DNA of 64,000 bases from Rhynchobatus australiae. Lineage: Eukaryota. The notes under the pieces were generated by a model. It saw only the letters and a program-made list of their open reading frames with translations. It was not told the DNA's origin and did not search any database. Made by a program: the position numbers and the translations under genes. Shown here piece by piece: positions 38,931 through 56,219 of this stretch; positions within the stretch are counted from its first letter, which is position 1; each line of letters begins with the position of its first letter. The stretch is taken from NCBI GenBank assembly GCA_034780895.1, contig JAUZTB010000048.1, positions 19,840,225-19,904,224 of the forward strand, read 5' to 3'.

Positions 38931-40200
38931 AGTCAGGGAGTCACAACGTCATACGTCATGAAAACAGACACTTCAACCCAATTCATCCATGCCAACCAAG
39001 ATGCCAATCTAAGCCAAACCCATCTGCCTGCATTTAGTCCATGTCCCTCTCAACCTTTCCTATCCATGTACCTGTCCAAGTGTCTTTTAAATGTTATTGT
39101 ACCTGCCTCAATCCTTTGGCAGCTCATTCCTTATACACACCACCCTCTGCATGAAGAAGTTGTCCCTCAGGTCCTTTCTCATATCTTTCCCCTCTCACGT
39201 NNNNNNNNNNNNNNNNNNNNNNNNNNNNNNNNNNNNNNNNNNNNNNNNNNNNNNNNNNNNNNNNNNNNNNNNNNNNNNNNNNNNNNNNNNNNNNNNNNNN
39301 CCAAAAGAGGCCCCAATGATCCAGAAAACTGAATCCCTGCTCCTTACTCCAATCCCTCAGCCCACACATTCAACCTCCTCCTCATCCTGTTCCTATACCC
39401 ACTGTCGCTTAGCACGGGCAGGAATCTGGAAATTGCTATCTTTGAGGTCCTGCTTCTCACCTTCCTTCCTAATTCTCTATAGTCTCTTTTCAGGACCTCA
39501 TTCCTTCCCCTACCTATGTCATTGGTACCAATATGCACCAGTGCCTCGGGCTGTTCTCCCTCCCCCTTTAGGTTATCTTGGACGTGATCTGAAACATCCT
39601 GGACCCTGGTACCTGGGAGGCAAATTACCTTCCGAGTTTCTTTCCTGCATCCACAGAATTGCTTGTCTGCCCACCTAACTATAGAGTACCCTATCACTAG
39701 TGCCCTCCTCACTCCTTCCCTACCCATCTGAGCCACAGGGCTGGACTCTCTACCGGAGACACTGCCACTGTTGCTTCACCCAAGTAGGCTGTCTCCCCCA
39801 ACAGTACTCAAGCAGGAGCACTTATTATCAAGGTGTACAGCCGCAGGGGTACTCTCTAGTACCTGTCTCTTCCCCTTCCCCTCCTGACCATGACCCACTT
39901 GCCTGACTCCGGTGGTCCCGGTGTGACCACCTGCCTATAACTTCTATCACCTCCTCACTCTCCCTGACCAGACAAAGGTCATCGAGCTGCATCTTCAGTT
40001 CCCTAACACGGTCCCTCAGGAGCTGCAGCTCGACGCACCTGATGCAGGTGTAGCCTTCCTGGAGGCAGGGAGACTCTGGGAACTCCCACATCTGGCACTC
40101 ATACTCCTTCCTTAACTCAAGTCACCTACCTTTCCTCGCCCCTTGAGCCAAAGCCCAGAACACTCTGCTCCCCTCCACTCCGCAGCCTGCTGGATATGGC
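38930..40200 (-). mobile_element. Antisense CR1: 3' end (38930-39200), gap, then ORF1 (zinc finger, leucine zipper, SGNH esterase)
   Basis: MWE..CIRCVELQLLRDRVRELK; RRALVIGYSIVR..CLPGTRVQDV..VHIGTNDIG. Confidence 0.85.
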
Positions 40201-42424
40201 AGTTTGCTTTTTAAACAGCCTGCTGATGTCACGCGCCTGCACAGTCCAGTCCCCACTATTCCCAATTAAAACTTCTATAAAAACTTACAAAACAGAACCT
40301 TACAAAACTAAACCTTACAATAAAAACTCTATACAAAAAAAAGAAGAAAAACTTATCTGTCCCGAAGTCCCAACCTTTGCAAATGACACGAAGATTGTTG
40401 GAGGATAGTTTTAGGTCACAGATTTGGTTTCAATGTGTTAATGAAATGGGCTGAGAAATGGCTGATGGAATTTAATCCAGATAAATGTAAGGTGATGCAT
40501 TTTTGATAAGCTAGGATGTACACCATGAATGGTGAGGTCCGAGGGAGCATTAAGCAACAGAGGGATGTTGGTGCACAAATCCAAAGATGTGAATGTGGCA
40601 GTGCAGGTAGATAACATGGTTAAGAAGACATTGGATACTGGCCTTCATTAGTCAGGGCATCGAGGATAGGGTCACAGTAGAGTGCATCTTCAAAGGGCTG
40701 GCTGGAAGGAATACTGACTGTCCTTTGCTCTGTTCTTTAATGGATGAAGCCTTCGGTGTTTGGTCATTGATGGCTTTGATGGTGCTGAAGAACCCACTTA
40801 TGTCATGATTGTCAAGAAGCTGGTGGTGTGTCTCCATCCAATGTCTGTTCTTTAGATCACTGGCTTTCTACTGGACCTCAGGCATCAAATGTCTATTGAG
40901 CTGTTTCTTTTCTCTTGAGCCTTAGTGCTATTTCTAATTCAACAAAAAATTGTGATTTGTGTTTGTGGTTAATTAGATCTGCATGTCCTGGTGGTTCGCA
41001 TCAAATTAGGTCCTGAGTGTTCCCTCACAGTTGCTAATAACAGCAGGCTTCAGGAAAGTCCATCTGCTGTGGCAGAGGGCCAACAAAGTTGTCTGTGAGC
41101 CATTGTCAGAGAAGAGTTACCTTTGTGAATTAATTTTCTTGAGTATTTCTATTGATACTTGTGTTTTGNNNNNNNNNNAGCCAGATCAATCAGATAAGTG
41201 CATTAGATGATGATCAGCCTAGCAGTTATAAGAACTTGTCATGGCACAAATAATGTGGCCAATCATGTGGTCTTTCACTTGTGATGATGATACATGTATA
41301 TTGTAACTAGTGCCAGTGTCTAGACCAGACGACATTTACCATGAAGTTGTGCTTGTCTCTGATGAAACAATGTGTCAGTGATGCCAAGTCTGTGCTCCAA
41401 GCATTTCATCAGGTGGAGGGTGCTGTTGGAGTGAGCCTTCTCAATTCCCTCCTGCAGATCATGCCTTGCCAGAGGGTTCTACCTTTTCCCAACCTGATGT
41501 TCATCTCCCAGTGGATAGCTGGAATATGCAAGTCATATTCAAATGCCAGGATGTAATTAGTGGAGGGCTACAAGAGACTTCCTTTCAGCAAAACCTTACC
41601 TTAGTACTTCATATAGTCAGGTCTTTACTTTCAGCTCCTAGCTATTTTTTTCTTATGGATTTGTTAACCAGACCTGCCATGTATCAACATCGATAAGGAA
41701 GGTAACTGCAAAGGTACCATGTAAAATTGTGGTCCTGTAGACTAGTTAATTCATGGTATCAGCTTTTGTACAATGCTGGGTGTCAATCTCAAAATGAATT
41801 ACTTTTCAAGCCTGCAGTTGAAAGCAAAACTCTGAAGCAAAGCTGAAAGTGCCTTGGGCTGAATCATCTACCTACATACAAGTAGTATCTTCCTTGACTG
41901 TCTATACTTGAGTCCCTCAGCCGCTGCACAACAAAGCTCCCCACAGTTGGCTGGCTAATTGATTCCTGACTATGGCATGGGTTGCTTAATCATCCAGTCC
42001 TTCTGTCAGTGGGGGTCTTCTGGTCATCCAGACTCCACTGAGATTTATCAGTATATTATGACTGCTAAATGATGGGAGACGTCTAGCTGAGTGAAACCCT
42101 GGGAAGGAAGGGGATCTCTGACACTGGGGCCTGAGGTGGTGGAGAGTGTTGGGTTGGAAGGATGCAAGGTTAAGGAATTACTAAGTGGAAATGAAAGGCA
42201 NNNNNNNNNNNNNNNNNNNNNNNNNNNNNNNNNNNNNNNNNNNNNNNNNNTTACGTTGTCATTTAGCTGTAGGGTAGGCAGTATACCATGTTTCAACAGG
42301 TGTCCAGGCCCCAGCCTTGACCTAATGCCAATTCTTGGAAAAGGGTGTTCTATTTACAATAACCATTGTATTCTGTTACATGAAGAATCAAAATTTCTGT
42401 ACACTATGACTCAGTCAAGGGGGA

Positions 42425-42814
42425 CGTAGTAGTGAGCAAGAAAAGCAACATAGCGTTGGTGCACCAGGAAACCAGACAAAGCTGATCTACCCAATCACTA
42501 TTTTCGGACAGCCTTGTATGTAAATGATTACATAGAAAACTTAATTAACTACATAATTACAGTAAAACTAGGTTATTCATTACAGAATAAAACAATTATC
42601 TGTAAATCTAACTGAGTGATAGCAAATCCAAGTTTCAGCCACAGCAATTGTGTATTATGATGTGATCATCAAGTCTCTGTATCTTGGCGCAGTTATAGCT
42701 GCATCCCATCTCTCTATGGATGAACCTTATCAGTAGTTCCCTGTTACCAAATCAGCACAAGCTGCATCTAAATGTTACTAGTTATTAACCCTCTCTATTC
42801 CTAACCCTACAACA
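42425..42814 (-). repeat. 3' LTR of the provirus (about 390 bp)
   Basis: On - it begins TGTTGTAGGG right after a purine tract (AGGGGGCAT); aligns by eye with 49408-49684 and about 50990-51323. Confidence 0.85.
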
Positions 42815-42845
42815 ATGCCCCCTGTAGGCTCTTGGCCTAAAGTGG

Positions 42846-44400
42846 TCAATAGGGCCTACAAGTTTCCATCTCTAACAGTATCTCAGCTTGGCCTTCTAAG
42901 CTGCTCTCCCGCTGACACCAATGCTTTATCTGGCATTGCAGAATGCGCTCTAAAATAATAACAGCCATTAAAACAACCAGCTGTACAACAATAGCAGAGT
43001 GGGAGTTAGGAGGAATCCAGAGATGAATTTGTACATTCAAGCCAATTCCAAATACTGTCCCAAAACGAGAGGTTCTCCAGAGCCACCTTGGCCTCATTTC
43101 TGTGCATCCCATTGCTTGATGACTTCCTTGTCCTCCTGGATGGTCTTTTCCCAGTCAGCCCCCTCTTGGACTTGTGTAACTCAATTTCATGTCAGTGGGT
43201 TGCTTAGTGATATCCGTATTTCCTCATGGTGTTTTGCAACATTGAGCACTCTCATATCAGGGTACAATCTGATTGTCACCATGTCGGAGAGTACCACTGT
43301 GTATACAGTGGACTGCTCTCATTTTCGCAGTCTCCCAGGACACGATTAGTCAGAGTGAGATCCTGAATGTGGCACACAGGGGCTCCTTCACCCACCCATT
43401 CTTTCAACCAGTTGTCTGACATCCAATCTGGGAATCTACGGCTTTCTAACTGTCAAATATTTGCACTGACTACAGACAAGAGCCAGGCAGCATATGTCGT
43501 ACAAACTGCATCTTTATCACAGTGTTAAGTGTCATTATTCACTCTATCAATAACCTCGTTAGTTATACCCTCTAATGGCTGCAATAACTGAATAGTTTCT
43601 AAAACTACTTCTGCCCCATGCTTCACTATTCTACTAGCTTGTCCCAGATCACCATAATTTTGTCCTATGATCCCCTTCTACTTCTGCCGAAGGGAATTGA
43701 TTTGTGAATCTATCTCTGTTATAAAGTATTACCTGTAGATGTAGTTGCTGCATATCCTGTTCCTAATAATTCTATCAAACTCTTCTTCATTCTCTGCCTT
43801 TCTGTCCTAAACCCATTANNNNNNNNNNNNNNNNNNNNNNNNNNNNNNNNNNNNNNNNNNNNNNNNNNNNNNNNNNACTATCTGAACATGCCTATTATAG
43901 CCTGGTACCAGAGTGACCATTTCACAAGAATCTTCCAAAACTAATCCTATTCTCCACAGCCCCTGCATCCATTTGGCCTTTGCTACACTGTGGTGCGCTT
44001 GTGGTAACAGGTGACCATCAGTCGTCGAGTCCTGAACAGAACAACCCAGTTGCATAACCGTACAAATTTCATTGCCGCACTTAAACACGAATGGTTCAAT
44101 GGTCCTATGTCTAGGCATGACAAATATTAACATGGTATTCCCCCTCTCATGTATGCCCATTCCCCACTGGATGTCCCCTTAGTGCCATGCAAATTCCAAA
44201 TGTCCATTCCACAGTACTGCATGCTATCACGTCCCCCAAGCAAAATTGCATACCACTGGTACACTCTGCCAATGGTCGTTCTTTATTATTTCCTTGATTT
44301 ACAGTACGTATTTTGCTTGCTGTTAGAAGAAAGCTCAAAAAGGTGATTCATCCAATTATCCAGATTCTTCTGAGCAAAGCTCATTGGGCTCCATGTGTAC
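42846..44400 (-). pseudogene. env: ERV env remnant (signal-like segment, Cys-rich N region, RMKK|SLIELLGTGY cleavage site and fusion peptide, heptad region, TM anchor)
   Basis: Splice acceptor tttctacag|G near 44405 on -; basic site at 43782-43793; hydrophobic AIVVQLVVLMAVIIL in ORF 42846-43112. Confidence 0.8.
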
Positions 44401-44449
44401 TATTCCTGTAGAAATATATTTGTATGGTCAAATCATTCCTGCCCAAGGT

Positions 44450-47400
44450 ATCTCCAAGTGGGACTAGTGCTTCCACTTTGGTCCTTCCTTAGTTTCCACC
44501 AGGGCACATATCTCTCCAATCAAGATTACCATAAATGGCCCCTCAATCTAGGTTATAATCTTAGTTTTGCTGGTGCAGCCTTAACCACTACCTTACCTCC
44601 TGCTTCTGGCATGTTTGCCTTCACCTGAGCATGCCTGTGCCCCCAGTCTCTCACTCTCTGCCAATCAATGACTTCCCCTTTCAGATCATGCAGACAAATG
44701 GTCAACTCCCATGTAAACAGAGTAATCCGGCCCTTACCATTACAGCTTTCTGGTCCTCCGGTAATCGCATCCTCCGGTAGTTGCATGGCCTGTCCTGTCA
44801 TTGATTCAAAAGGTGTAAATCCTGTCTCACGACTAGGGTTCGTTCATACTTTCATCAGTACTGCTGGTAAGAACCAAGTCCAGCTTTCCCCAGCCTCCAT
44901 TTAGGGTCCTTTTTAGAGTACAATTCATTTTCTCAACTATGCCAGAACTCTGGGGTCAGCGTGCAATGTGAAACCTCCTTGGCCCTTAACAACACCCTCT
45001 TGATTACCTTCCCAGTAAAGTGTGTCTCTTGATATGAGTCAAACCTGGGTTATTGCCTCTCAGCCAGCACACGGGCGACTGACTCAGCAGAGCAGTCTCA
45101 ACTTGGGATTACTACCACCCACCTTGTAAAGTGATCTAGGATCACCAAACAATACCATTTACCCCTGGATTGGCATAATGGCCCTGTGAAGTCCATCTGA
45201 AGTTGCTCCCACAGGCCTTTAGCCCGTGGCTGATGCCCTAGTTGAATATTAGGTGCTTGCCCCAATCACACTGAGCATATTGTACATTGTTGGCAGAATT
45301 TGGCAATGTCTCTCCTCGTTCCCAGCCACCACCAGCACCCTCTAGCTGGGACCTCATCTTATCCCGCCCAATATGGGCTAAACCAAGGTAGGTTTTCAAC
45401 TATGTATGCCTGATGCATTCTGGAGCTAACATGCGTACATTCATCATCTCACCACATCTTCCTTCGCACTCCTGCCTGTTACCAAATCTGCTTTTCTTTT
45501 GATGATGCCTCTTCTTGTATCGCCTTTAAATCTTCCTCCTCTGCCTCCCTGACCATCACTATCTCTACTGGCACTGGGCCAGACTCTTCCACAATTGGCT
45601 TACCTGCTTAATCGGCAAATGCATTTCCCCTTTGCTCAGGGGTGTCTACCCCTTTATGCGCCTTAATCTTTATGACTACTGTTTTGTAGCTTCCGCTAAC
45701 TCCTTCACCATCTCTTTATGTTGTGCGTGTCCTCCTGACGAGGTCACCTACCCTCTACTTGCCCAAGCTGCCATATAATCATGAAATACTCTCATGTACC
45801 TGCTGTCTGTGTGAATGTTCACATTCTATCCCTTTCCTAACCATAAGGATGCTGTTAACGCTTTTAGTTCTGCCACTAACCCTAACCTGTAGAGTGGGAG
45901 TTTTCCTCCTGCCATTCAGTTCCCTCTTTTATCCATCCTGTACCATCAAACTGGCTGGGTTAACCTTTATCATCTGTACATGCTTGTCAGCAGGTAATGA
46001 TACTACCTCCCATTTCACTCACCTGCTGTCAGATACTGCCTGCACTTTCCCTCTCCAGGAGAGTGACTGTACTCTGAGCTGTGTGCAAGATTATCTGATC
46101 CATCAGAGTAGTAGGCTCTGATGCTCCGACAACCCCAGTTGCACAATCTATCACTTGCACACACTAACGCATTCCTGCAACTTCAAGGTCTTGTTCTACA
46201 GAATAATATGCTACAGGCTGCAACTTGTCACCATGTTCCTAATGTACAACAACAGTATAAAATTCTCCCTGATTATCACAAAAAAAATGGAATAGTCTCT
46301 TCGTGTCTGGCAAACCCAAAACCACGCAGCAACTAAAGTTTGCTTTAGACTCGAGAAAGCCTGATCTATCTCTGGCATCCATTCCACCTACTCTTTGCCC
46401 TGCCTCCCCCCCTTACAAGAGTAATTTTCCACAAAATTGTGACAGTAATTTAGGAATCCCAAAGTCTGACAGACTCCCTTCACTGTGTACAGGCAGGGGA
46501 GTTTAAGAATTGATGCTTTATGTTCCTTGGGCATTACTTTCTCGCCCTACCTAATCTTGTGTCCCAAATACTCTACCTCAGGCTGACCAACCAGACCTTG
46601 GGAGGGGTTTACTTTTAGACCCACATTCTCAATAACTTGTCGAGTCCTTGAAACCACCCAGATGTGCTCTTTCTCTCCCAAGATCCAATTAACATATTGC
46701 AAAATGCTGCTGGTATCTGCCAAGGGGATTCAGGCAACTATCTTAGCCATACATTGGATGGAAAATGGCAGAGCTGTTATGGAAACCCTAGGGCAGCCTT
46801 GTCCAAGTGTCCCACTGTCCCTGGACAGTAAAAGCTAGTTTATCCTGACCATCAGCATGTACTGGGATCAACCAAAAACCATTTGCAATATCTAAGACAA
46901 TAAAAGTGCCCTGTTCCAGCCTCAGGCCATTCAAAATGATAGATGGATCTGCTACTATAGGATATTCTCGAGTGGCATATTTGTTCAAGGATGTGTAATC
47001 AATTGTCAGCGGGTAGGACCCATCTGGCTTATGTATGGGCCAGATAGGGGAATTTGTATGGGAAATGGTAGACCGGATTATTCCTTGTTTCTTAGTTCTG
47101 TGACTACCTTTACCACTGCAGCTTCTGCTGCTAGTTTGATGGGGTCTGTCTACGGGGTGGGTGTGACGGGTCCTCTATCCAAACGGGCATCATATCAACA
47201 AAGTCACAGTCCTGTATGTGAGTGGCCCACACCCGGGGGTATGTTTTGACGATAATACCCCATACTCCAACCACTGCCCACTCAGCCTTTAAGGCTGCAA
47301 CTCATGGTATACATAAGTCATCCCTACTCCCCTTCCACCACCAAGGGTGAGCCCACATTCCCCAAATGATTTTTCTTGTACCTGCCTTAATTATAGCTCT

Positions 47401-47825
47401 CAGACATTCCAACAGATCTATGTCGATGCCTTCGTAATTGTCACAAAGTCGTATACGTACAGTAGTGCTCGTGTCCTCAATCTGTATTGGACGGGGTCAC
47501 TTAATTGAGCAAGCATGGATCCTCCCCCCACCCCCATAACTAGTTGTNNNNNNNNNNNNNNNNNNNNNNNNNNNNNNNNNNNNNNNNNNNNNNNNNNNNN
47601 NNNNNNNNNNNNNNNNNNNNNNNNNNNNNNNNNNNNNNNNNNNNNNNCATGGATCCTCCCCCCACCCCCATAACTAGTTGTAGGTTTACTTGTAATGTGC
47701 AAGTCAAGATTTGTCATGGATATTGAGGCCCCAGTGTCATCCAACACAATGGACTGCTGGCCCCCTAATGGCACATTGACAAACATCTTGGGGTCCCCAC
47801 CCTTCCCGCCAAGGGCTGATACTTG
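44450..47825 (-). pseudogene. pol: ERV pro-pol remnant (protease, RT, tether, RNase H, integrase)
   Basis: LDDTGAS; LTIDYTSLN; LDIANGFW; WTRLP*GFHNS; LQYV; GLKVNP..EVEYLG; PVAYYS; VNIHTDSRY; KIKAH..GNAFAD; H-X..CQQC; WEQLQMDFTGPL; PQSSGIVEKMN; EGPF..WKH. Confidence 0.93.
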
Positions 47826-49200
47826 TCATTTCATCAGGAATCGTTTCAACTCCTCCGCGGAGATCTGGAAGATAGGTCCCGTTCTGCTACCACTGAAGCA
47901 GAGTGGTGATCCTCAACTTGCTGAGTCCACGATCCTTGTCCTGCCTTCCATCCGCCTTTGAACCAACAATTGTCCTGACTATGTCCTGCTGTGCCTAATT
48001 TGGCCTCTTCCCCTGTTCTTACAATCCCAGGTCATGTGCCTCTTCCTTCCACACCTGGAACATTCCACATCACCTTGCCTGTCCTGCCTCACAGCTGCCA
48101 CTAGGGATGCACATTCTCCTGTTTCTTCCCATCTCTGCCTCTGCTTCCATTGCCCAGTTAAGAATTTAGTTAAACGTAAGACCCACAAGTAATCTCATCT
48201 TTATTAGTTGGGTCAGATGTGGACACATATCATCTTTCAGAAGTTGTAAGCAGACGTCATCGTCCATCTGGGCCCCCTTTAGGCCACCATGTTGCTTGTA
48301 CACTTGATACTTCTCAACTTTCTCTTTTGGACCTTGCTTAATTAAAATATCCTTGGTCCAGTTTGCCTAACCCTTACCTGTCACGTCCTTAACTGCCTCG
48401 GTAAAGTCCCCCAGATTGTCCTCTGGGGATTTGTTTCTCCCTTTGAGCCAAATCTTATTTTGGACATGGTTGGGCAGCTTGTACCAGACCTGCATAAGAA
48501 TTTAGCCTGGTCAAATGATGACCCTCTAAGTCTTTAACCTTTTGCCAAAAAGCACATTATTGTTATGTTTAACAGAGGAGAATTCATTTAGCAACATCTG
48601 TTTCTCTGTTGCTGTAAAAGGTTCTTCCACCCTGGATTCTGTAGTCTTATTCCCTTTGGTCTTCCAGATGATCTGGAGGGATACTAGCATCCACTGCTGC
48701 CTCATTAAATGGTGAAGGTGATAATTTTTTGTTGCAAGTTCCATACTCCTAGCTGCAGTAGCCAAATCATTCCAATCTACATTGTTTTCTGTGGACGCAC
48801 TTGACCTTGCCCTACTTATTATCGCCCCAGTGTCAGGGGGGGGTTCTGAACTCTTATCGTGTTTAGTGGTCGCTACTCTATGATGGTTGCGCATTAAAGC
48901 TGTTATTACTATACAGCCATTTTGTATTTACCCTTTTCTTGTCCCTTCCACCAAGTAATTTGCTTGAGGATTGTTCCATCTGGATCGTAACTCTTCTTAA
49001 TCATTTTTTGTATCATCTTATGGTTACCGTGCACTACCATCTGTACAAGGGATCTTTCTAGTTCCCACACTACTACGCCAGTCTCCTCCAGCTTCTTTCT
49101 CCACCATGGCCATACCTTATTGTGACTGCAATTCTGGCTCCCCGAGCCTATGTCTCAAAAAAGAGTTGGTTAGTCAATCAATTTCCCACCCGGACATTGT
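47826..49200 (-). pseudogene. gag: ERV gag remnant with one CCHC zinc knuckle
   Basis: CSRCGRKRHMTWDC (C-x2-C-x4-H-x4-C) at about 48020-48065; lies between PBS and protease; ends EELKRFLMK*; start approximate. Confidence 0.8.
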
Positions 49201-49386: not shown

Positions 49387-49404
49387 ATCCTGCCAACTAT
49401 CCCA
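49387..49404 (-). promoter_or_regulatory. Primer-binding site, tRNA-Ser type
   Basis: - strand TGGGATAGTTGGCAGGAT versus TGGCGTAGTCGGCAGGAT (complement of the vertebrate tRNA-Ser 3' end), 15/18, 3 nt after the LTR CA end. Confidence 0.75.
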
Positions 49405-49407
49405 AAT

Positions 49408-49684
49408 TGTAGGAGTGAACGAGAAAGGCAACATGGAGCTGGTGTCCAACGATTTATTGAAACTGGTATGCACCAGGAGACCAGACAAAACTGATCTACC
49501 TGCACACTATTTTGGGACACCATTGTATACCTCTCCACATACCTGATTACACAGAAAACTTAAGTTTTGATTGTTACGTTTCTCCGATTACATCATTACA
49601 TGGACTCATTACAGAACAGAACACTTAATTATCCATAAGTCTAACTTTAGTTAACAGCAAACTTAAGTTTTGGCCACAATAATA
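49408..49684 (-). repeat. 5' LTR of the provirus (truncated by gap), with AATAAA on - at about 49453-49458
   Basis: TGTAGGAG terminus on +, aligns with the LTR starting at 42425. Confidence 0.85.
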
Positions 49685-49784: not shown

Positions 49785-50962
49785 AGACTTGGCTGAAAGG
49801 GAGAAACACACTCCCAGAGGACCAACTGGGGCACTTTAATGGGGCAGACAAGGATGGGATTACCTGTGGGTCACACATTTAACCAAACTCTTCACTGGGC
49901 AATGGAAGCAGAGGGAGAGAGGGGGAAAAACCAGAGAATGTGCAGCCCCAGTGGCAGCTGTGAGGCACGACAGGAGGTGATGTGGAACGTTTCAGGTGTG
50001 GGAGGAAGGGGTACGTGGCCCGGGACTGTAAGAACAGGGGAAAAGGCTAAATTAAATGCAGCGATTGTGGAAGACAGGACGCAGTTGGGACAATTGCTGG
50101 TCCAATGGCGGAGGGAAGGTGGGACAGGGACCACGGACCCAGTGAGCTGAGGAGCGCCACTCTGGTGGATCTGGTCTTTCAGATGTCCGTGGAGGAGCTG
50201 AAACAACTCCTGATGAAGTGACAAGTATCAGCCCTTGGTAGGAAAGGCAGGGGACCCCAGAATGTTTGTCAGTGTGCTGTTGGGGGGGCCAGCAGTGCAC
50301 TGTGTTGGTAGACACTGGGGCTCAATATGGATGAGGAATCTTGACTTACCCATAACAAGTACAACTTACACTGGTGATGGGGGTGTGGGGAGGGTCCATC
50401 CTTGCTCAGTTAAGTGAGCATGTCCCGATACAGATTGAAGACGCAAGCACCACTGTCTGTGTATGGGTTTGTAACAATCACAAAGGCACCATCTTAGGGG
50501 CAGATCTATTGGAATGCCTGGGAGCTATAAAGGCAGGTACAAAGGGAAATCATATGGGGAATGAGGACTTGCCCTTGGTGGTGGTGGAAGGGCAATGGGG
50601 ATAATGTATACCACAAGTTTTGGCCTTAAATACTGAGTGGGCAGTGGTGGGAATATGGGATATTATTGTCAAAACGTACGCCTGGGTGTGGGCCACTCAC
50701 AAACAGGACTGTGGCCTCGTCCATTTGGATGGAGGGTTCATCACAACCGCCCTGTAGACAAGCGCCCCATCAAACCTGGAGCCGAAGATGCAGTGGTAAA
50801 GATAGTGACAGACTACAGAAACAAGGAGTGATCCAGTCTCCTGGCTGGGACACATCAGACGAATCCTACCAGCTGACAATCGATGATACCTCCTTGAGCA
50901 AAAATGCCACTGGAGAATATCCTATAATGCCAGATCCACCCATCATTCTGAATGGCCCGAGG
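49785..50962 (+). mobile_element. Second, inverted fragment of the same ERV family (gag C-term, protease, RT start)
   Basis: Reverse-complement similarity to about 46925-48455, with an internal deletion of about 190 nt; decayed zinc knuckle, VDTGA-like site, LTIDDTSL..YPIMPDPPIILNG. Confidence 0.88.
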
Positions 50963-50989: not shown

Positions 50990-51323
50990 GCATGTGTGAT
51001 TACACAGAAAACTTAATTAACCAAGTGCTGATTGTTACATTTCTCAGATTTAGTCATTACACAGACAATTATGTCAAAACTGGGTTTTTGTTATAGAATA
51101 AGACACTTAATTATCCACAAGTCTAACTTAGGTTTGTGTTAACTAAGTTTTGGCCACAACAGTAGTGACACGTTGTACCATGATCATCAAGCTTCTGTAC
51201 CTTGGTGCAGTTACAACTGCATCCCATCTCTGTTGTTGAACTTTATCAGTAGTTCCCTGATACCACATCACCATTTATCCTATTTTACTAGTTATTAACC
51301 CTCTATGTTCCTACCCCTACACA
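50990..51323 (-). repeat. Third, partial LTR of the same family
   Basis: Shares tgattacacagaaaacttaa, tggccacaa, gcatcccatctc, ttatcagtagttccctg and ttactagttattaaccctct..ccctaca(a)ca with the other LTRs. Confidence 0.85.
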
Positions 51324-54070: not shown

Positions 54071-54281
54071 GGCTTTGATGTGTTGCCACCATCAGAGAAG
54101 ACAAAAGCGGGAAAAGCTAAGTTTTTCATTGTAGCTGTAAAAGAGGCCCTCAGCAAGGCTAACTACGAGCGCTTCACAGAAGCAATGCAAAAGTACAAAA
54201 TGACTGATGATTTTGACGCCATGTTAAGTGAAATGACTGCTCTTTTTACAGAAGACTTGAGAAAAAATAATCTTCTGCGAG
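54071..54281 (+). CDS. RTEL1: RTEL1 exon (exon 29 equivalent), harmonin-N-like domain 1: GFDVLPPSEKTKAGKAKFFIVAVKEALSKANYERFTEAMQKYK...NNLLR
   Basis: tttttag|...GAG|gtaatt; 211 nt. Confidence 0.92.
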
Positions 54282-56219
54282 GTAATTAATGGTAAAATAT
54301 TTGTGTAGTTTTACTAAGTATATAGAAGTAAATACTACCAAATTTTTTCAATGAAGTGGTGACTTGAGTTGCACAATCTAAAAATAGGGAGAACTGTACC
54401 CGGTGAATTCTATGCCCTCCATGTACTATACTTCTGATATCCATGCCACTTGTACTACGAGTATTCAAGAATATATCATTGTTTCTCTGCTCTAGTGACA
54501 AGGTCCCCCATATAAAAATAATTGTAAATACTGCTGACATGTACTATGTATTGAACTTTAAGCTGATCTGCCTGGCTGGTGATGACTAATACATGGTGAC
54601 TACACCATCTAATATATGGTAATATTTTTGCTTTTGGTAGTACTTGCTCTCATGCCTATCTGCAAGCTCCCTTGAACAGTGATGACAGGTTTTACATTTC
54701 ATAAAGTAGTAGATTATTTTGTGTCAGTGATAGGAATGTTTCTCAGTATTAAATTTAGCCTCTTAGTAGTGCCATACTTCTAATACAAAACTTTGACCAA
54801 TCTGAATATTGGTGGGATTCAATCATCAAACTAATTTATTTTCTTGAATATCCCTGGACTTGCTGATGAGAAGATTTTATTTTAAATAGTTTTGTGCAAT
54901 GGAAAATGTTTGCTGAGGGGTCCTGAAGTCTGATCGATTGTTTGAATGCTTGTACATCAAGGTAAAGGGAATTCTAATACATGGCCAGATTTAGGAACTT
55001 TAAACCATTTGTGAAAAATGCTCAGAACAACTGGAAACTAGCAACCATTGCATAATTAGATTCAATTTTAAAATTGAAACGGGGAGGAGAGTTTAAAGGC
55101 TTAATTGAAAAACAACACATTTCAGTAAGATTAAAGGAACAGNNNNNNNNNNNNNNNNNNNNNNNNNNNNNNNNNNNNNNNNNNNNNNNNGGGAAATGAA
55201 AGAAAAACAAAAACGTGTGGGGGGTGGTGGATGACTGGAAAAAAAATCAAATTAAAATTGTTCTTGAAGGCATGTAGCAGATTTAGATTAAGACAAAGGA
55301 AAATTAAACAGTATGGAAAATGTAAAGAAACATTCATTTGAAAAGCTGAAATTAAAAAAGATTGGCAGGTGAGGAAGAGAAATAAGATTTTATAAATAAA
55401 AGATTATTTAAAAGACATAGCCAATGAACACTTAAACTTGAGGCATGGGAGTGAATGGGTTAACTGCATACTTTACCTCAATTTGCATAGAAGGGAGGTA
55501 ATGATATTGTTTCTGCTTGAGGTGTCCACAACCTTATTTTCATTTTTTTCGAAGTGGCTTTTGGGAAATGTTTATTTTTAACCATATTCCTATTTGTCTT
55601 CTGTTGTAGATTTTGCTTTCAGCATTTATCTGCTCAAGCATTTCATTTCCTGGTACAAAACAAAAATTAAGAGTCCTTCATTATTTTAATGAGTTGATTT
55701 ATAACCTCCAATTATTGGTTAGCCAGCCACTGCAAAGGATTTTCATAATTAATCTGACAATTTTCATAATTTTACTAATCTTTATGAACCCTTTTTTTGC
55801 TGCAATGAAATGAGCCTGAGTTACAACACAACTTCAGAGCCCATTCTTTGCCCCTGATTTCCTCTGCTGTGTCCAACTATTGACTAATGTGGAGGAGTAT
55901 CAATTTGTCAGGTTTGGGTGCAGTTTCCAGAAGGTTATTAGCAGGAGGTTCTCCACTCCTTACTTTACTGATACCATTCTATGTCAAAGTTAATGTAGAA
56001 AACTTCCAGGAGTACATTCAATTGACTGTACTTCACTTTTAGTGAGTTATTTCTCCAGTAGGATAGGTGCATCCACCATGGCAATGGAGAACTCTAATAT
56101 TGCTTCATAATTCTGGTTCAACGTAACTATATCAAGATGGAATGTTGTCAAATACTACATGATAATGATGCTAAGACACTTTCTGGTTCTGATGCATTTC
56201 AAATACTCCTTAAAAACAG

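Follow-up and report, generated by a model that had tools for sequence, protein, structure and literature searches.

The window, that is, the whole stretch of 64,000 nucleotides of Rhynchobatus australiae DNA that was analysed, contains a broken endogenous retrovirus with the gene order gag-PR-RT-RH-IN-env, all parts of which lie on the minus strand. The element begins with the inner part of its 5' LTR (49,408-49,682), the outer part of which enters an assembly gap. Directly after this LTR follows an 18-mer similar to a primer-binding site (49,387-49,404), which may be tRNA-Ser-like; no tRNA gene was found in the window. Further along are gag with a CCHC zinc knuckle (47,982-48,927; Pfam zf-CCHC_3, E 3e-4), a protease with the motif DTGA and an assembly gap inside (47,421-47,825), reverse transcriptase (RT; 46,391-47,174), tether and RNase H (45,600-46,390), and integrase (44,556-45,400; Pfam rve, E 3e-5 for 45,101-45,265), all of them broken. 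The 3' LTR at 42,425-42,811, the outer end of which is approximate, matches 49,469-49,563 at 76% and 51,076-51,321 at 73%. The env pieces sit between the integrase and the LTR starting at 42,811, and env ends about 40 bp before that LTR. The region 42,849-44,400 is the env gene, now broken, of this LTR element, an old endogenous retrovirus present in multiple copies.

The two LTRs are identical in 175 of 222 aligned columns. A search of the own genome at the DNA level, in which 24 candidates were scored, gave 34 matches, and the sister copies so found have env genes that are 67-87% identical; the insertion is therefore old. Several of these sister copies match the env query as two blocks about 400 bp apart. 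A chance acquisition of env from another element is ruled out by the linkage of env to pol in all five sister loci fetched, and a captured RNA-virus F gene outside a retroelement is ruled out by the place of the gene between IN and LTR. In two sister copies (L034:945-1490 and L037:1270-1545) env pieces directly follow RT or tether, implying large internal deletions.

Directly upstream of the element lie two further pieces: a gag-PR-RT fragment in inverted orientation that belongs to the family (49,785-50,962, plus strand, 75-81% identical), and an LTR-like one (50,997-51,321). An exon matching the RTEL1 HHD domain is present at 54,071-54,286 (plus strand, E 1e-8), and the position of the element, as read from the sequence, is likely antisense in or beside RTEL1. 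An ORF remnant resembling SGNH/GDSL esterases, of a type typical of LINE ORF1, is found at 39,347-39,775 (minus strand, E 3e-4).

The env peptides quoted in the preliminary description can be read on the minus strand, where they fall in three frames, interrupted by stops and frameshifts as well as an assembly gap. The gene starts with a signal-peptide-like hydrophobic stretch (44,318-44,380), at which a sister copy has Met followed by about 20 hydrophobic residues. The extra N-terminal block comes next (43,960-44,317); it is frameshifted, has about 100 codons with seven Cys and a Thr/Pro-rich linker at its end, and is kept in sister copies (17 matches). It is followed by an F2-like core (43,782-43,955) of beta strand(s), a helix and a degenerate furin site, with an assembly gap inside at 43,819-43,876. 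LWRIGLVLED lies at the start of this core (about 43,955-43,925), and RQRMKK, followed across the cleavage site by SLIELLG, at 43,799-43,760. The fusion-peptide-like segment after the cleavage site (43,722-43,781) aligns with the post-cleavage segment of all ten relatives in the alignment. The F1-like part (43,160-43,722, including ITEIDSQ...DNWLKEW at 43,722-43,395) comprises a heptad repeat and a central helix with a conserved Cys, then a beta region, with several stops and frameshifts. Beyond a deletion junction (43,158-43,160) remain a frameshifted membrane-proximal ectodomain segment, apparently HRB-like (42,993-43,158), a hydrophobic transmembrane (TM) segment (about 42,948-42,992; family-profile positions 461-493), and a cytoplasmic tail of about 33 codons that stops just before the LTR (42,849-42,947).

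When a profile is made from 13 database relatives alone, leaving out the own genome, one frame of the window scores 85 bits (E 9e-28), and 100 shuffles reach at best -0.4 bits; the env signal in the window is therefore not a matter of chance. This search repeats an earlier one whose profile took in one sister copy and which was thus partly circular. As the preliminary description had stated, neither a gamma-type ISD nor CX6CC occurs in the three minus frames of 42,800-44,600.

That description also counted about 265 codons from cleavage site to TM. The count holds for the window copy but not for the family, for which sister copies have about 400 codons; the window copy is short because about 390 bp are deleted at 43,159. 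In pairwise alignments the gap at this position is 396 bp against sister copy L119, 387 bp against L120, about 394 bp against L006 and about 449 bp against L004. The part lost is a Cys-rich part of the ectodomain, as may be seen from the sister copies. The corresponding distance from cleavage to TM is about 410-415 residues in the intact relatives P0027 and P0023, about 355 in the snakehead retrovirus SnRV and about 385 in the walleye virus WDSV. The junction is crossed without a gap or difference by a contig of sequencing run X1, which may be the source sample, and without a gap by a contig of run X2, from a second organism. The X2 contig corresponds to 42,026-43,373 of the window at about 96% identity and takes in host flank, LTR, env end and deletion junction; both the insertion and the deletion therefore predate the split from the X2 organism. 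Since contigs of two organisms span the junction, an assembly artefact is ruled out. With its stops, frameshifts and deletion, the copy in the window is a dead fossil, which makes no such Env protein.

The layout of the family Env is, in order, a signal peptide, a block of about 100 residues, a Thr/Pro linker, a pre-cleavage core of about 70 residues (69 between core start and cleavage site in one sister copy), a basic cleavage site, a fusion-peptide-like segment, an ectodomain of about 400 residues in the sister copies, the TM and a short tail. The cleavage site is degenerate in the window (RQRMKK), and one sister copy has an RxKR site.

Relatives of this Env were sought in a database of 1.84 billion proteins, with a sister-copy frame in which one stop was read through as X. 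Twenty-two proteins match at E ≤ 0.001; the origins of 16 of them are sharks (13), an amphibian, namely a frog (1), and unnamed (2). This distribution makes it probable that the element's host is a cartilaginous fish. When aligned, the relatives have in common a core that runs from a beta-strand motif and RxxR to a fusion-peptide-like segment, heptad repeats, a conserved Cys-x-x-Tyr, a region rich in Cys and, last, a TM; N-terminal to this core they diverge. A word-based protein search returned no match for the env read-through or the pol piece, and one homolog only for the intact shark relative P0016. Env pieces and profiles searched against PDB sequences had no relevant match, and a search for related loci with the RT piece found no viral contig. 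In the Atlas, P0016 falls to one chordate cluster at 0.82, which is a lead only. The own genome also holds other, more distant broken F-type env families (L021-L030), with 30 matches to P0016 at 21-53% identity.

The preliminary description had likened this env to paramyxovirus F or foamy Env, in an F2/F1 layout, rather than to gamma-type Env. Neither of the Pfam families it had proposed to look for, Fusion_gly and Foamy_virus_ENV, was hit directly. Pfam scans of the window pieces, the sister-copy ORFs and the relatives gave no Env or F family match, and there is no sequence-level match to F (PF00523). The likeness itself is supported by a structure search with an intact relative, by profile ranking and by the ectodomain of about 400 residues.

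The protein folded was P0016, which is about 23% identical to the window family and not a member of it, with a 15-row alignment; the resulting model is of low confidence (mean pLDDT 47, pTM 0.37). A Foldseek search of the PDB with this model gave 51 matches at E ≤ 0.001, and the best 42 of the 51 are all F or foamy Env (41 paramyxovirus or pneumovirus F and one foamy Env), with TM-scores of 0.10-0.18. In a library of viral structures the model matches diverse F-like glycoproteins, the Env proteins of WEHV-1 and WDSV ranking fourth and fifth and paramyxovirus F sixth. A second aligner matched the whole part of the model behind the N-terminal block (residues 189-598) to F of hMPV and RSV with about 250 residues aligned; the F chains have Z-scores of 4.3-5.2 at about 9 Å rmsd, and several unrelated helical proteins score higher. 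The class Ib core fold is thus seen on the low-confidence model of the intact relative, and weakly in the second aligner. The class Ib layout is seen in the sister copies, the window copy having the deletion and the degenerate site.

Among 270 long ORFs of reference contigs ranked with the profile of the 13 relatives, foamy Env takes 15 of the top 17 rows, with a best E of 1.6e-6 over the Cys-rich region. For WDSV Env the E value is 0.022 and for SnRV Env 0.5; the best-scoring gamma-type ORF has 8.2. With hhalign, the family profile aligns to WDSV Env over 345 columns (prob 70%) and to SnRV Env over 269 columns (prob 52%, E 1.4e-4). In this reference set contig L078 was taken as SnRV, as its RT matches the published SnRV RT by eye, and L104 is presumably WDSV by its gene content; genus labels of the other contigs were inferred from motif, tree and the like.

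The low model confidence, the weak Z-scores and a gp41 helical bundle at rank 2 of the second aligner would fit another reading, namely that the likeness to F comes only from a poor model and from coiled coils in general, and that the gene is in truth a divergent gamma- or beta-type env. This is barely credible, since the Foldseek rows listed are all F or foamy, the matches reach through the beta and Cys-rich region, the ectodomain after the cleavage site has about 400 residues, ISD and CX6CC are absent, and the family profile scores no gamma-type ORF better than E 8. Structure search, profile ranking and profile alignments are none of them strong alone, but together they make it very probable that the env encodes a fusion core of the paramyxovirus/pneumovirus F type (class Ib). 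The predicted fold, the F2/F1 layout and the ectodomain length are those of F itself (PDB 1ztm, 7tjq, 6apb); F differs in having no N-terminal accessory domain and in relying on a separate attachment protein.

The lineage of the element may be estimated from its RT, of which five unjoined fragments were placed among 25 reference RTs (of 48 extracted, redundant ones being dropped), a set without Loki, fish foamy-like, ERV-L, lentivirus or metavirus sequences. In the joint tree all five fragments group together, with SnRV as their sister (UFBoot 90), and SnRV, foamy viruses and the element form a clade with UFBoot 99. In single-fragment trees two of the five are sister to SnRV, one lies at the base of SnRV plus foamy, and two have no clear placement. 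The RNase H and integrase fragments score best against gamma-type contigs, in a set without epsilonretroviruses. It is probable that the element belongs to the SnRV ('Huo') clade. An SnRV-like lineage in the elephant shark (CmiERV lineage I) and the presence of clade Huo in all major vertebrate lineages are described in the accessible parts of PMC4422223 and PMC6001957, respectively, and SnRV-like ('Huo') ERVs are also treated in the part available of PMC12193657.

Beyond the probable RT clade, the Env of the family resembles SnRV Env in having a core-start motif, a basic cleavage site, a long post-cleavage ectodomain and an N-terminal extension. Its N-terminal part, however, has about 120 residues against about 530 in SnRV, its cytoplasmic tail is short against 136 residues, the element has no 3' accessory ORF, and the likeness of the Env proteins is at the profile level only. 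The Env proteins of WDSV and WEHV-1 resemble that of the family by the profile alignment over 345 columns (WDSV), the structure-library match and the N-terminal extension before the core, but belong to epsilonretroviruses, which have another RT clade, an extension of about 400 residues and a long cytoplasmic tail. Epsilon Env is predicted to be structurally distinct in the portion available of PMC3758190.

The preliminary description had also hinted at lokiretroviruses. If the element were a lokiretrovirus, the first in cartilaginous fish, with an N-terminal block added to its F-like Env, then the type of Env, the tether with RNase H and a core-start motif that resembles Loki Env by eye would all be accounted for. 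Moreover, the RT tree holds no Loki sequence, so that attraction to SnRV is possible. The Env proteins do agree in the F type, the RxKR site, the fusion peptide, the coiled coil and the TM (PMC7947760, as far as accessible). The RT motif of the family, however, is by eye of the LPQGF type, against the published Loki xPFGY, and the RT nests within known retroviruses beside SnRV and foamy viruses (UFBoot 99). Loki Env is also without the N-terminal block: in the accessible parts of PMC7947760, 12 Loki Env proteins are shown, and in the 11 of them that have an N-terminus the core comes right after the signal peptide. The same parts report no lokiretrovirus from cartilaginous fish, none of the six chondrichthyan genomes in the original screen holding one. 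We consider a lokiretroviral identity very unlikely, and the hint is not upheld.

Among the reference viruses, the family profile matches foamy Env best in sequence, over the Cys-rich region of the TM subunit, and foamy RT is the best PDB match of the RT (in a set without an SnRV structure) and a close second in pairwise RT scores; an endogenous foamy virus of cartilaginous fish has reportedly been published. An alternative is therefore that the element is a foamy ERV or a fish foamy-like one (clade Tu), its Env having been reduced. Against this, no large domain separates the first helix from the cleavage site; core start and cleavage are 69 residues apart here, whereas the two furin sites of a foamy Env have about 445 residues between them. 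The element has a Gag with a CCHC knuckle, whereas foamy Gag, to our knowledge, has no zinc knuckle. There is no room for accessory genes between env and LTR, and the RT is sister to SnRV and not within the foamy viruses. Membership of the foamy lineage is thus unlikely. The foamy Env shares the class Ib core but, in the accessible parts of Fernandez et al. (PMC11468914; PDB 8rm1), its receptor-binding domain is inserted between core parts and a leader peptide is present, whereas the extra domain here is small and N-terminal; binding modules are described there as N-terminal or inserted.

The N-terminal block had been described as Cys-rich and 140 codons long. Its presence is confirmed, but its length is about 100 codons after a signal-peptide-like stretch of about 20, and its content of Cys is moderate (5-7) rather than high: 4 in 56 and 3 in 45 residues in the window pieces, 5 in 108 in L124 and 6 in 100 in P0007. 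The block of the family has no match in the PDB or Pfam and does not align to the N-terminal parts of P0027 or SnRV Env; its model (pLDDT 44) is uninformative.

Other Env proteins have different N-terminal parts. P0023, an intact Env of 723 aa from the frog Pelodytes ibericus, weakly resembles antibody heavy-chain V domains at residues ~115-185, and a search with its block gave antibody heavy chains in all 50 rows listed (best E 0.0049). The UniRef name of P0016 is 'Ig-like domain-containing'. The first segment of SnRV Env has a faint V-set match (E 0.26). In SnRV Env (L078:6131-9535) and WDSV Env (L104:5962-9651), both of which align to the family profile, 400-530 residues precede the F-like core. 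Its first residue is number 406 in WDSV and 528 in SnRV, as against 163-208 in three relatives, and from there it is 67-98 residues to the cleavage site.

Its position before the core, and the lack of any separate attachment protein in a retrovirus, suggest that the block may be an attachment or receptor-binding domain, to which we give an even chance. The Env would then work as follows. Furin cleavage would free the fusion peptide, the trimer would refold from the pre-fusion form to a post-fusion six-helix bundle, as in F, and the block would supply attachment in front of the core, an arrangement like that of coronavirus spike and, as it appears, of the N-terminal parts (400-530 residues) of walleye and snakehead retrovirus Env. 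It is conceivable, though doubtful, that the Env is of the F type and the block is nevertheless a structural cap, a spacer or a degenerate remnant, the F core itself doing the binding, as a pneumovirus F core can. The block is small and without a detectable family or fold, and Loki Env works without one. Against this, the domains that relatives have in this position are unrelated, and one is Ig-V-like, which is the pattern of an exchangeable binding head, and conserved Cys and the Thr/Pro linker set the block off as a separate domain. As a whole, it is rather likely that the window holds the broken env of an SnRV-clade ERV that encoded a predicted F-type fusogen with a small N-terminal domain that may have served attachment.

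Intact chondrichthyan copies, which the preliminary description had proposed to look for, exist as shark Env ORFs in the protein database. P0016, P0027 and P0029 (Chiloscyllium punctatum, Scyliorhinus torazame and Heterodontus francisci) are intact F-type Env-like ORFs of 739-754 aa. They are 85-88% identical across three shark orders, with 597 invariant columns, and all keep the furin site, the fusion peptide and the TM. On these sequence data, the three ORFs may represent a candidate domesticated env gene of sharks; no intact ortholog of this gene is seen among the 61 candidates scored, of 73, in the own genome.

The literature searched, available in part, covered also PMC13709493, PMC10699275, bioRxiv 2021.11.23.469661 and bioRxiv 2023.10.26.564294; two likely sources lay outside it. 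Within these limits, it contains neither a statement that the Env of SnRV-clade or shark ERVs is of the F type nor a description of the conserved shark env gene. In the accessible part of PMC12583693, F-like proteins are found across viral realms and more are expected in Retroviridae, and a chondrichthyan Env screen required the ISD (bioRxiv 2026.05.06.723177, likewise available in part).

Wang and Han (PMC7947760), in the parts accessible, report that Loki Env resembles F. As no other retroviruses were then known to have an F-like Env, they leave open four scenarios of how retroviral Env arose. Since that time the F core (class Ib) has been demonstrated in foamy Env as well (PMC11468914, in part). 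An ancestor of the F type is favoured by the occurrence of such an Env in a third RT clade and by the links, in profile and structure library, to the Env proteins of the walleye and snakehead viruses. Tentatively, an F-type Env may be ancestral and kept in Loki, foamy, SnRV-clade and epsilon viruses, with exchangeable N-terminal heads (Ig-like, Cys-rich or large) on one core; the gamma and beta types would be later replacements, and one such Env may have been domesticated in horn, bamboo and cat sharks. If this is true, the domesticated shark Env would be a captured fusogen of a non-syncytin type, missed by ISD-based screens. Env screens that rely on the motifs ISD and CX6CC, as do those of the 2021 anamniote and the 2026 chondrichthyan preprint, overlook the whole class, including this candidate gene, and the intact relatives in sharks and a frog make the question of Env origin testable.
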